Assembly: GCA_900554615.1 (NCBI GenBank)
Contig: USIB01000001.1
Coordinates: 1 to 53,846, forward strand
Direction of reading: 5' to 3'
DNA from: an uncultured Mycoplasmatota bacterium
GTDB taxonomy: Bacteria; Bacillota_I; Bacilli_A; RF39; UBA660
DNA: 53,846 nt
The first letter of the stretch is position 1; each line of letters begins with the position of its first letter. Below are positions 4,801 to 30,181 of the stretch, in pieces. A program made the translations under genes and the position numbers. Below the pieces are notes generated by a model. It did not search any database. It saw only the letters and a program-made list of their open reading frames with translations, and had not been told where the DNA came from.

Positions 4801-4886
4801 GCCAGCCTGGCGGAATGGTAGACGCGGTAGACTCAAAATCTACTACTAGTGATAGTGTGAGGGTTCAAGTCCCTTGGCTGGTACCA
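4801..4886 (+). tRNA. tRNA-Leu (anticodon CAA), class II with long variable arm, encoded CCA
   Basis: Acceptor stem GCCAGCC/GGCTGGT, D-arm GCGG-AATGGTA-GACGC, anticodon stem-loop GTAGA-CTCAAAA-TCTAC, long variable arm, T-arm GAGGGTTCAAGTCCCTT, then A-CCA. Confidence 0.9.
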
Positions 4887-15970: not shown

Positions 15971-16300
15971 ATGAAAAAAACTTTATTTGCGGTTTTAATA
16001 TGTGGTATTATGGTATTAACACTTACTGGCTGTGGTAGTAAAATTGAAACAAATGATGATGTAAATAATGTAAGTATTGATGAATTAAATGATATTAACA
16101 ATAAAATTATCTTTTATTTTAATGATAATGGTACATCTATATATGATAATTATAGTTATAATTATGTAAATGAAAATGATATGGTTGTTGTTGTTGGATT
16201 AGTAGATAATAGTAAAGAAGAACAAGAATGGTTTAGAAGAAATATAGTTGATTCAAAGTATATTAGATTTGAACAAGGAAACCATCCTGTAAATGAATAA
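15971..16300 (+). CDS. lipoprotein
   Basis: 109 aa with a signal peptide ending in the lipobox LTLTGC. Confidence 0.6.
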   Translation: MKKTLFAVLICGIMVLTLTGCGSKIETNDDVNNVSIDELNDINNKIIFYFNDNGTSIYDNYSYNYVNENDMVVVVGLVDNSKEEQEWFRRNIVDSKYIRFEQGNHPVNE

Positions 16301-16575
16301 TTAGTCCCCTACTTTTATTTTTCACTAAAAAGAGGGAAGGGATAGATACTTTTCTACTAAATTTAATTTAAATGATTTTTTAATTAATTAGATGAAGAAT
16401 TATCCATCTTAAATTATATTAAATAGATTATGTAGTTAATTTTTTTTTAACATGAATAATATTTTTGTAGATATAATTATAATATATGGAGTATAATTAA
16501 TATTATTATGAGATAAGTCTTATTTTATATGGTAATTTAAGGTTAATTACTATACTACTTTTAATCAAATATCAT

Positions 16576-16603
16576 ACTTCCTATAATTAATATTATGTTA
16601 AGT
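16576..16603 (+). other. dif: chromosome dimer resolution site dif (XerC arm - 6-bp centre - XerD arm)
   Basis: ACTTCCTATAA-TTAATA-TTATGTTAAGT compared with B. subtilis dif ACTTCCTAGAA-TATATA-TTATGTAAACT (recalled): 10/11 and 9/11 arm identities. The gene-orientation switch occurs here. Confidence 0.7.
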
Positions 16604-16623
16604 TCTATTTTTTCACTATGGGC

Positions 16624-17205
16624 TTATTTTTGAGGTTTGCGAAGTTCTTGTTTTTCTTTCTCTAGTTTATGTCTTCTGGAAGTTATATAAGTATTTAAAA
16701 ATAATGTATGAGAACAAGCAACATTCCATAATTCCATATAGCCTTGTTCCATTAAATAATTTAATAAGTCTGAGTATTCTATTATGTCGTGTTCTAAAAT
16801 TAATATTTGTATTTCTTTTAAGAATTGGAATACTTCAAAATTATTTAATATATCGGTTACATCAAAACCATTAAATAATTGTATTTGTGTACTATCGTAT
16901 TGATACTTTTCTGGGTTGTCTTTATGTGTAAAGTATCTAAAGTACCCTCTTACACTCTCTAAAGCAATAGGCAAGGGTTGATTAATCTCGTCCATTATTT
17001 GTTTGACAGTTTTATCAGTGGTCGGACCAGGAAAAGACAATATTATATGCCAGTGTGCCTTTTTCTTCTCTCCAGTTGGGTTAACATCTTTATCGTGTAA
17101 TGGACTAACTGCAAACGAAATACCTTTTAATTTTAAAATCTCTATCCAATCTTCTGGTGCACTTTCAGGGTACACTACCCCACCCCAATTTCTTTTTTTT
17201 ATCAT
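16624..17205 (-). CDS. rep: rolling-circle replication initiator, pMV158 RepB family (Rep_2-like HUH endonuclease)
   Basis: VYPESAPEDW...SPLHDKD...KKAHWHIIL...YFRYFTHKD aligns with pMV158 RepB LYPESIPSDW..SPLHDKD..KKAHYHVLY..YLYLTHES (HUH motif plus catalytic Tyr). Start set at ATG 17205, with AGGAGG 7 nt upstream; the track ORF starts at 17235. Confidence 0.85.
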   Translation of the reverse strand: MIKKRNWGGVVYPESAPEDWIEILKLKGISFAVSPLHDKDVNPTGEKKKAHWHIILSFPGPTTDKTVKQIMDEINQPLPIALESVRGYFRYFTHKDNPEKYQYDSTQIQLFNGFDVTDILNNFEVFQFLKEIQILILEHDIIEYSDLLNYLMEQGYMELWNVACSHTLFLNTYITSRRHKLEKEKQELRKPQK

Positions 17206-17237
17206 ATTTTTTCCTCCTATTTTTATTGATTTCACAT

Positions 17238-17280
17238 TTCACACCATTGGGGGGTCGTAGTAGACCCCCAATGGTGTGAA
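17238..17280 (-). promoter_or_regulatory. candidate double-strand origin: 18-bp hairpin presenting TACTACGAC (pMV158-type nick sequence)
   Basis: On the - strand: TTCACACCATTGGGGGTC-TACTAC-GACCCCCCAATGGTGTGAA. The loop plus the first stem bases read TACTACGAC, the RepB nick site TACTACG/AC as recalled. It lies immediately upstream of rep. Confidence 0.65.
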
Positions 17281-17285
17281 TAAAT

Positions 17286-17888
17286 TTAAAGTTCGTTTAT
17301 TGGCTCAAAAGTATCGTACATTTGAGCTATGTATTTATTTCTTTTATAAATGAACATTGCTAGTATAGGACACTCCCATTCCATAGTTTCTTGATTAAAG
17401 ATAGTATTTAGACCATCTCCGCAAGTAGTATAGAAGATAGGCAAGATAGGAAGTTTTCTAGTAGCAAACATAAACCTGGCTGGTCTTCTGAGCCACATAG
17501 GTAGTTCTTTCCATTCTTGGGTTATTAACATAACTATTCGACCTCTTTTCCTACTTTGCTGCAGCCAAGAGTAAAAAGGCTTGTCTGGTGGGCTATTTTT
17601 TGTATATTTTTTAGACACTTCGTCAATTATATAAATAACATTCTCTTCAATATCTTGTAATATTTCTTCTAACTTAGTAAAGTACTGTATCTCTCTTCCG
17701 GGTATCTCCAAACTTTTAATATTAGTTTTAATTTTATAACTACATTTATTTATTCTTTCTAAATAATAAACTCCGAAATAAGTTTTACCACTACCTTGAA
17801 AGCCAGTAATAAAATAAACACCCCATTTGTCTTCTATATTAGGAACACCTCTTTTAATTAAAGATGGCATATCAATTTTTACTTTCAT
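17286..17888 (-). CDS. Zot-like / pI-like phage assembly P-loop ATPase
   Basis: Walker A GFQGSGKT, Walker B VIYIIDEV, and QQSRKRGRIVMLITQ (Zot-family hRH.G.d..liTQ). Start set at ATG 17888, with GGAGG 8 nt upstream. The 55-codon upstream extension in the track is GC-rich, hairpin-filled and probably non-coding. Confidence 0.75.
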   Translation of the reverse strand: MKVKIDMPSLIKRGVPNIEDKWGVYFITGFQGSGKTYFGVYYLERINKCSYKIKTNIKSLEIPGREIQYFTKLEEILQDIEENVIYIIDEVSKKYTKNSPPDKPFYSWLQQSRKRGRIVMLITQEWKELPMWLRRPARFMFATRKLPILPIFYTTCGDGLNTIFNQETMEWECPILAMFIYKRNKYIAQMYDTFEPINEL

Positions 17889-18019
17889 TTTATAACCTCC
17901 TCTCTGGGCCCTTTGCCCGAAGTAGCCGAACCAGGCTACTTCCCCCGCTATTAGTATAGGGGAAACCCCTATAACCCCCTTAGTAAGAATGGCTACGCCC
18001 CACCCCTTTGACATAGTTG
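17889..18019 (-). other. GC-rich structured intergenic region of the prophage (candidate packaging signal / single-strand origin)
   Basis: Perfect hairpins at 17919-17942 (GAAGTAGCC/GGCTACTTC) and 17955-17973 (TATAGGGG-AAA-CCCCTATA), plus G/C runs, in an otherwise very AT-rich context. Confidence 0.5.
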
Positions 18020-18328
18020 TTACCATACCTTTATCTTTTGAATTAGAGACCATATTTTAGTAATGGCAAAGGCATTAACTGAAATAGTATAATAACCAAT
18101 AAGTAAAGTTAAATATAAAAGTACTACATATCTAGTAACACCAGGTAGCATACTAAAAAAGTAAGCAAGACCATTACCCATATAAGTATCTACTGCAGTA
18201 GTAAAACTACCTATCATTTGTGAAAAATCTGGAAAAATATTTGAGACTAATAAATTAAGTGGAGTTAAAACCAAATCTATTATTGAATTAAGTAATTTAA
18301 ATAGACCACTAAAGATAGCATTTATCAT
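18020..18328 (-). CDS. pVI-like minor coat / membrane protein
   Basis: 102 aa with 2-3 TM segments. ATGA overlap with the upstream pIII-like gene. Its position between the pIII-like and pI-like genes matches inovirus synteny. Confidence 0.45.
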   Translation of the reverse strand: MINAIFSGLFKLLNSIIDLVLTPLNLLVSNIFPDFSQMIGSFTTAVDTYMGNGLAYFFSMLPGVTRYVVLLYLTLLIGYYTISVNAFAITKIWSLIQKIKVW

Positions 18329-29994: not shown

Positions 29995-30181
29995 AAAAAA
30001 AAGTCCCAGCGGATCGACTCTGTAAGATAAAACCCGCGGCGTATGTCACAGGTGGGTGAACACAACAATCTAATTAGGATTCCTACTTTGAAGCAAGCAT
30101 TCAACACATAAATTGTATTAGTTCCCCTATTTATATCTTTAGTCGGTTTTATACTAAAGATATCGCATCCTCTAGGTACTT
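29995..30181 (-). ncRNA. ssrS: probable 6S RNA
   Basis: About 185 nt. The 5' AAAGUACCUAGAGGAUGCGAU pairs with the 3' GUCGAUCCGCUGGGACUUU. The rod extends via AUAAAACCG/CGGGUUUUAU, with an unpaired central bubble of about 16 nt per side, an inner stem GGGGAAC/GUUCACCC, and a terminal U8. Extended -10 promoter TGATATAAT at 30184-30192. It sits between aspS and tcdA, where I recall B. subtilis bsrA lying. Confidence 0.55.

Follow-up and report, generated by a model that had tools for sequence, protein, structure and literature searches.

The window analysed here, a stretch of 53,846 nucleotides (nt) from an uncultured Mycoplasmatota bacterium (contig USIB01000001.1), contains an integrated element that forms a unit of 4,993 bp, with 11 of its 12 open reading frames (ORFs) on one strand. 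One of these, the gene rep (16624–17205, − strand), codes for a 193-amino-acid (aa) HUH rolling-circle initiator of the RepB/pMV158 family. Upstream of rep on the same strand lie a hairpin (17238–17280, −) that presents a nick sequence and a series of genes resembling those of filamentous phages. The initial annotation had read the rep region as a RepB-like HUH protein plus its nick hairpin driving a filamentous phage. Our analysis confirmed that observation, and the sequence comparisons support its interpretation, with neither the profile searches nor the published nick consensus speaking against it: rep and the hairpin very probably are the initiator and the plus-strand (double-strand) origin of a temperate filamentous phage, and would work like RepB and the nic site of plasmid pMV158.

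In the ORF listing, the longest form of rep extends from 16624 to 17235 (−) and begins with GTG. The ATG at 17205 is the more likely start, since the sequence reads AGGAGG, a ribosome-binding site, 7 nt upstream of it (17213–17218, −) and gene callers chose this ATG on identical metagenome contigs, giving 193 aa. The protein matched Pfam Rep_OBD (PF01719, formerly Rep_2) with an E-value of 1.9e-41, far above threshold (141.4 bits for a cut-off of 24.6; profile positions 5–120 of 121), and RepB_C (PF21861) with 3e-12 over residues 127–179 (46.7 bits, cut-off 27.3). The best solved structures were those of pMV158 RepB (Protein Data Bank (PDB) entry 3dkx and others; 2.3e-16, residues 5–155). PHROGs and NCBIfam returned no match for Rep, and its family assignment is settled by Pfam and PDB. 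Going by these domains, Rep is built of an N-terminal origin-binding and nuclease domain and a C-terminal helical oligomerisation domain, through which it may form hexamers.

The motifs named in the initial annotation (PESxPxDW, SPLHDKD, KKAHxH and YxTH) were all recovered in the HMMER alignment of the window Rep with pMV158 RepB, which read YPESAPEDW and YPESIPSDW, an identical SPLHDKD, KKAHWH and KKAHYH, and YFTH and YLTH, respectively. Overall protein identity between the two is about 31%. In RepB, the Mn2+ ligands are H39, D42, H55 and H57, the catalytic tyrosine is Y99 and Y115 is a structural tyrosine (PMC5030251). These residues aligned with H37, D40, H51, H53, Y91 and Y103 of the window Rep, all six of which are unchanged when the protein is aligned with three homologues from phages. 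H37, D40, H51 and H53 are predicted to bind the metal and Y91 to be the catalytic tyrosine, with Y103 the putative counterpart of RepB Y115.

The hairpin, the equivalent of inverted repeat I (IR-I) of pMV158, was characterized by repeat search, folding and covariation. Read from 17280 to 17238 on the − strand, its sequence is TTCACACCATTGGGGGTC-TACTAC-GACCCCCCAATGGTGTGAA, with perfect arms of 16 bp in the repeat search, and the window has no other perfect inverted repeat that reaches 14 bp with a loop of 3–12 nt. Folded as single-stranded DNA, it gave 18 pairs with one bulged C and a TACTAC loop (ΔG −18.9 kcal/mol). None of 200 shuffles folded as well (z = −6.4), and its G+C content is 53%, compared with 25% for the window. 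The nick sequence TACTACGAC (17254–17262, −) occurred once in the whole window, where 0.09 occurrences were expected. It is identical to the mapped nick sequence of pMV158, 5′-TACTACG/AC-3′, which sits in the apical loop of IR-I (PMC1851628, PMC5030251); the consensus given in the initial annotation is exactly the published one. Uniqueness in the window, the comparison of the fold with shuffles and the low expected count indicate that hairpin and nick motif are real and not a chance pattern. By analogy with pMV158, cleavage is predicted between G17256 and A17255 of the − strand. This strand is the coding strand of every phage gene but the repressor, as expected of the plus strand of a filamentous phage. 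The hairpin and nick lie 57 nt from the rep ATG, on the same strand and with no ORF between.

Two tandem 7-bp direct repeats, TGTGAAA twice (17230–17243, −), can be read directly from the sequence and begin inside the 3′ arm of the hairpin. In the published pMV158 origin, a pair of 7-bp proximal direct repeats adjoins the hairpin, and three distal repeats of 11 bp lie 84 bp from the nick (PMC1851628, PMC5030251, PMC9943647). In the pMV158 sequence that we compared (NZ_MZ396393, reached by RepB protein search), the repeats at the position of the TGTGAAA pair are GTGCCGA GTGCCAA, and the nic region reads gggggggcTACTACGACcccccctataGTGCCGAGTGCCAA, compared with cattgggggtcTACTACGACcccccaatgGTGTGAAATGTGAA in the window. 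The alignment with the pMV158 double-strand origin called for in the initial annotation thus gave an identical nick sequence, with hairpin and 7-bp repeats at the same place. The TGTGAAA pair is likely to represent the Rep-binding iterons, equivalent to the pMV158 proximal repeats.

To place this arrangement among relatives of Rep, we drew on 52 GenBank phage records (11 fetched), 513 plasmid records (4 fetched, including pMV158), 17 loci from IMG/VR and 79 loci from a one-genome-per-species set; loci are cited here by L numbers. The 52 GenBank records are inoviruses, with a best identity of 64% to the window Rep. Among the fetched loci, 112 had a Rep match, the window included, and conservation was counted over these. 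The motif NACTACGA(C/T) was present within 2.5 kb of rep in 93 of the 112, with 95 occurrences on the rep strand versus 4 on the opposite strand. Nearly every occurrence lay in a hairpin followed by two or three tandem repeats of 7–8 bp, most of them containing GTG. Protein and site are a conserved pair among these relatives. RNAalifold on 32 diverse relatives yielded a stem of 9 bp, with the whole nick sequence inside a loop of some 12 nt. Compensatory changes occurred at 9 of 9 consensus stem pairs, a count that leans toward structure because the set had been pre-selected for the motif and at least 6 bp of stem. In relatives, the GTC/GAC pairs that close the top of the window hairpin were not kept, so the functional loop is probably longer than 6 nt. 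The 18-bp stem and 6-nt loop of the initial annotation fit the predicted fold of the window hairpin, save for one bulge, and the form kept by relatives is the shorter stem with the wider loop.

The iterons follow a narrower pattern. TGTGAAA in two copies was also found in four loci (L047, L048, L049 and L052) whose Rep is 68–81% identical to that of the window; iteron sequence follows Rep lineage, as Rep-specific iterons would. The median distance from nick to rep was 86 nt in 41 Zot-linked loci versus 417 nt in the 32 small contigs that lack Zot, and in plasmid relatives a ribbon-helix-helix gene fills this space. In the sequences compared, absence of the CopG/antisense control cassette is a general trait of the phages. 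In four inovirus genomes (L009, L028, L029 and L030), the nick hairpin was located about 0.9–1.2 kb downstream of the rep start, past the gene, which indicates that the order of origin and rep is not fixed in Rep_2-type inoviruses. Some small contigs with Rep and nick site (L060, L087, L092, L096 and others) had been binned as Methanobacteriota, Campylobacter, Bacteroidales, Flavobacterium or Treponema. These labels of metagenome-assembled genomes (MAGs) probably reflect misbinned small plasmids or phages and not true hosts. In a rough neighbor-joining tree, without support values and used qualitatively, the window Rep fell into a clade of Reps linked to Zot, next to the Rep of a 1.37-kb S. 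aureus plasmid, which is 54% identical to it; other parts of the tree showed phage and plasmid Reps interleaved.

By its genes, the element is a prophage of a temperate filamentous phage (inovirus), and its 4,993 bp fall within the span of inovirus genomes, about 4–12 kb. Upstream of rep and on the same strand follow Zot, a 102-aa protein, a 374-aa protein, small hydrophobic ORFs, a coat-like protein and three early ORFs. The Zot-like pI assembly ATPase (17286–18053, −; start predicted, 200–246 aa according to the gene callers) ends with a stop codon 6 nt from the hairpin. It matched Pfam Zot (PF05707) with 6.1e-6 (26.3 bits, cut-off 20.3) and phrog_197 with 1.3e-11. The region 18020–19449 (−) codes for the 374-aa protein and then the 102-aa protein, taken as pIII-like and as a pVI-like membrane protein. 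The former has an N-terminal signal-like segment and a C-terminal hydrophobic segment, as in an adsorption protein, and both genes show weak homology to genes at the same position in three inovirus genomes (L003, L050 and L077). As there were no family matches, these two roles were assigned from position and sequence features.

The small structural genes (19434–20251, −), recognized from their translations and from homologues in related prophages, comprise ORFs of 46, 47 and 112 aa and a major-coat-like protein of 62 aa (20063–20251, −) with a hydrophobic core and a basic C-terminus. A terminator-like hairpin (20053–20077, −) directly follows the coat-like gene, as in Ff phages. The early genes, called as ORFs of 84, 97 and 62 aa (20302–21198, −), had no family matches in profile scans, and the 97- and 62-aa ORFs have homologues in related prophages; a single-stranded-DNA-binding protein would be expected in this early region. 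The sole gene on the opposite strand codes for a 66-aa Cro/CI-type repressor (21320–21520, +; Pfam HTH_3, 6.9e-11). A bidirectional terminator-like hairpin (21519–21543) lies after the repressor gene, and Bajarodino viruses 14 and 63 have an annotated 'repressor protein' in the equivalent place. The best promoter-like site, TTGACA-17-TATACT with TG (21244–21272, −), lies in the divergent region between repressor and phage operon and is a consensus match only. The promoter scan found 36 sites with 36.3 expected from shuffles; given this lack of enrichment, we do not claim a dedicated rep promoter.

The order of genes matches that of the complete circular Bajarodino virus 14 (4,471 bp), in which Zot, origin, rep, an opposite-strand repressor and structural genes are found, and the Zot, 112-, 102- and 374-aa proteins of the window are 52, 64, 30 and 27% identical to their counterparts there. 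The filamentous phage context proposed in the initial annotation is thereby borne out by a Zot-like pI and by homologous, colinear morphogenesis genes. The phages are mosaics of modules. For Rep (81%) and the repressor (91%), the nearest relative is prophage L047, whose own Zot most resembles that of Dulem virus 59; the window Zot has its nearest relatives (about 50%) in Bajarodino virus 14, L077 and L050. No other replication domain was detected among the scanned ORFs of the element, and no recombinase domain in the 10 larger ORFs scanned; the ORFs of 46 and 47 aa, too short for such a domain, were left out.

The element is bounded by two dif-like sites. The left site, attL (16576–16603, +), reads ACTTCCTATAA-TTAATA-TTATGTTAAGT, has a host-type left arm and matches B. 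subtilis dif, ACTTCCTAGAA-TATATA-TTATGTAAACT (PMC3025954), at 23 of 28 positions. The right site, attR (21569–21596, +), reads AGTCCGCATAC-TTAATA-TTATGTTAAGT and has centre and right arm in common with attL. Its left arm, AGTCCGCATAC, is phage-derived and agrees in 8 of 11 positions with the left arm of E. coli dif, GGTGCGCATAA. A 26-nt direct repeat is present here (16583–16608 and 21576–21601), its copies spaced by 4,993 bp. In four related bacteria (L037, L043, L045 and L046) the site is empty, and its left and right flanks match the outer flanks in the window. The order at the empty site is a XerD-like gene, phosphoglucomutase, the site, a 260-aa protein and mnmA. The linkage of XerD-like gene, phosphoglucomutase and site was kept in the prophage-free L037, L043 and L045. 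In the window, the host XerD-like tyrosine recombinase gene (23315–24253, −) lies 1.7 kb from the dif-like site, and its score against TIGR02225 was 326 bits, just under the cut-off of 329.6. Over the 54 kb of the window, as distinct from the whole chromosome, cumulative GC skew peaks at 15–17 kb, and gene orientation converges there, which bears on a possible role of the site in chromosome dimer resolution at the replication terminus.

The empty sites came from a scan of metagenome contigs for exact matches to the 22-nt core. In the same scan, three contigs with identical Rep and origin (L004–L006) showed an attP-type junction, with the left arm of the phage and the core connected to the rep end, which indicates a circle or a tandem array in those samples. 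Paired dif-like sites also flank related RepB-type prophages in six other MAGs (L048, L065, L072, L075, L077 and L084). A host-type arm, ACTTC(C/G)TATAA, follows directly after rep in five of the six, the arm of L077 being different. The phage-side left arm of these relatives is AT-rich and degenerate, and their centre and right arm are identical. Together these data fit integration of the element at the dif-like site by the host Xer recombinases.

Further observations concern the surroundings of the insertion site. A 109-aa lipoprotein-like gene (15971–16300, +) separates the 260-aa gene from the dif-like site, and its absence from all related empty-site loci points to a strain-specific insertion beside dif. 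Short, imperfect versions of the sequence that lies right of dif (TTC-TAAAAAGAGG and GTAGTTAATTT; 21596–21610 and 21620–21637) recur about 150–270 nt to the left of attL, at 16321–16335 and 16432–16449. They may have arisen by chance, by an old duplication or as the remnant of an earlier insertion. Elsewhere in the window, and unrelated to the prophage, we noted the host features 6S RNA (29999–30181, −; Rfam, 52.7 bits) and tRNA-Leu(CAA) (4801–4886, +).

If rep and hairpin act as proposed, Rep would bind supercoiled duplex phage DNA at the iterons and the hairpin's 3′ arm and help to extrude the hairpin. Y91, with Mn2+ held by H37, D40, H51 and H53, would then cut between G17256 and A17255 and stay linked to the 5′ end. 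Starting from the 3′-OH, host helicase and polymerase would proceed through rep, cross the att junction, pass the repressor region and the structural genes and return to the origin, where Rep would reseal the displaced strand as a plus-strand circle. This strand could be copied back to duplex or exported by the Zot-type assembly machine. To enter the chromosome, the phage would use XerC/D-type recombinases of the host at the dif-like site, and its progeny DNA might come from the excised circle, or from rolling-circle replication across tandem prophages as for CTXphi. A lone integrated copy could not terminate a round of replication, so Xer-mediated excision or tandem copies would be needed; the attP junctions fit either route.

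Several observations weigh against this proposal, in addition to the pre-selection of the covariation set. The window holds a single prophage copy. In the minimum-energy fold, the scissile G and A are paired at the top of the stem, and the hairpin tip must thus fray or be opened by Rep. Repeat searches found no pMV158-like distal repeats (three of 11 bp) downstream of the nick, a stretch that here is rep coding sequence; within the pMV158 family, the length and spacing of distal repeats vary (PMC1851628). There is no CopG gene between the nick and the rep ATG, and no room for an antisense RNA, as the gap measures only 57 nt. An Rfam scan at gathering thresholds returned nothing inside the element, so none of the known plasmid antisense RNAs occurs there. 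A minus-strand origin or packaging hairpin was not found in the 170-nt gap at 20774–20943, the only sizeable non-coding gap and the only one folded, which folded no better than shuffles (z = −1.0). What the initial annotation called a pMV158-type replicon is therefore present in its nic part, without recognizable distal repeats, CopG/antisense control or single-strand origin.

These points have a bearing on the possibility that Rep, origin and prophage are correctly identified but belong to a defective fossil that no longer replicates or makes particles. The single copy in the window, the lack of a recognized minus-strand origin or single-stranded-DNA-binding protein and the several small ORFs without homologues would agree with such a state. 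However, all ORFs are intact and the active-site residues of Rep are kept. Contigs with an identical Rep protein came from several samples, with an identical origin in the four compared, and the junctions of right to left phage end in three contigs require a circle or a tandem array. We consider a fossil improbable. A pMV158-type plasmid that had integrated beside a filamentous prophage lacking its own Rep, with Rep and origin not serving the phage, might be suspected from the close Rep relatives encoded by small plasmids such as the 1.37-kb S. aureus plasmid, and from the interleaving of plasmid and phage Reps in the rough tree. Yet rep and the morphogenesis genes lie together as one unit between a single dif-like pair, no second replication gene was detected in it, and complete circular inovirus genomes in GenBank share the order Zot, origin, rep, repressor. 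The close abutment of the Zot stop codon and the hairpin, the missing plasmid-type CopG cassette and a nick-to-rep distance typical of phages also argue for one element, and render two adjacent elements very unlikely.

The position of the hairpin just after the Zot stop codon and its high stability would equally suit a transcription terminator of the Zot operon or a packaging signal, in which case TACTACGAC would be a coincidence. The hairpin is not followed by a T-run, however, and the terminator scan did not list it. Across relatives its loop sequence is invariant while the stem covaries, and the motif is strand-specific relative to rep and is also present in plasmids without Zot. We give next to no credence to this being its chief role, and the hairpin may still act secondarily as a terminator or packaging signal.

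In common with RepB and the nic locus of pMV158 and the pE194/pLS1 family, the window combines Rep_OBD and RepB_C domains with the same metal ligands and catalytic tyrosine, displays the identical 9-nt TACTACG/AC at the tip of a G-run/C-run hairpin, and has two 7-bp repeats abutting the 3′ arm. It differs from pMV158 in its iterons (TGTGAAA instead of GTGCCRA), in its nick-to-ATG distance (57 versus 417 nt), and in lacking CopG/antisense-RNA control and identifiable distal 11-bp repeats. Moreover, the replicon is part of a phage and not of a plasmid, and no single-strand origin of the ssoA/ssoU type was recognized in the one gap folded. Since the nick is predicted to the nucleotide and candidate Rep-binding repeats are at hand, pMV158 biochemistry should be directly transferable. 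A precise plus-strand origin is thereby proposed for the window prophage and for many metagenomic inoviruses deposited with only a 'replication initiator protein'.

The closest counterparts are metagenomic inoviruses and prophages. Rep is 64% identical to that of Bajarodino virus 33 (PQ006162), 50% to that of Bajarodino virus 14 (PQ006174), 51% to that of Dulem virus 59 (PP511793) and 81% to that of prophages in MAGs of uncultured Bacilli such as CANQPC010000006. These closest prophage relatives point to uncultured Bacilli or Mycoplasma sp. CAG-type gut bacteria as hosts. Like the window, these have a single TACTACGAC hairpin with iterons upstream of rep, the same gene order, homologous Zot and structural genes, and genomes of 4.5–7 kb. 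Bajarodino virus 33 and Dulem virus 59 carry an integrase/recombinase gene, unlike the window copy, which is integrated without one. No publication on Bajarodino viruses that could be tied to the GenBank records was found. The supplementary table of Roux et al. 2019 lists an inovirus family, iPF_00199, with 71 members and the annotation 'DNA replication, RCR, Rep_2' (RCR, rolling-circle replication); this is the Pfam family of the window Rep, and the catalogue gives the protein family only. No reference to Xer recombinases was found in that study's main text, and none to pMV158 or RepB in its supplements. Inovirus Reps fall into five HUH clusters, and replication modules have been repeatedly exchanged with plasmids (Kazlauskas et al., 2019, PMC6668415). 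The window exemplifies this published view of module swapping between inoviruses and small plasmids by both a cis site and a protein. The modular fusion of plasmid replicon and inovirus put forward in the initial annotation thus holds as evolutionary history. It is not a one-off: given the Zot-linked Rep clade and the earlier cataloguing, the combination of a RepB-type Rep with an inovirus is already known and represents a widespread, established lineage. In the literature consulted, we found neither an explicit description of a pMV158-type nic locus in these phages nor one of their integration at dif-like sites.

Integration at dif by a Xer-type route is a side finding of more interest than the pairing of Rep and origin. 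We tentatively suggest, as a possibility that we hold to be somewhat less than even, that a clade of inoviruses in gut Bacillota combines pMV158-type nic/RepB replication with host Xer integration at dif, using an attP in which the centre and right (XerD-type) arm are kept and the left arm is often degenerate. If true, this would extend Xer-exploiting phages outside Proteobacteria, beyond Vibrio, Xanthomonas and Neisseria, and progeny might come from RepB-driven rolling-circle replication across tandem prophages, as in CTXphi. Integration at dif, if confirmed, would also explain the persistence of the phage in uncultured gut bacteria. The Xer-using filamentous phages and satellites CTXphi, VGJphi and TLCphi have been reviewed as integrative mobile elements exploiting Xer (IMEX) (PMC5357621, PMC4246890). 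The window shares with them a filamentous phage without integrase, two flanking dif-like sites and a tandem or circular junction, and its progeny could plausibly be produced, by analogy with CTXphi-type phages, through excision or through rolling-circle replication that spans tandem copies. It differs from them in its low-GC Bacillota-type host instead of Vibrio and in its RepB-type initiator. Finally, in comparison with TLCphi and the gonococcal island, several relatives of the window element present the mirror image, with a degenerate left (XerC-type) arm and with centre and right arm kept.

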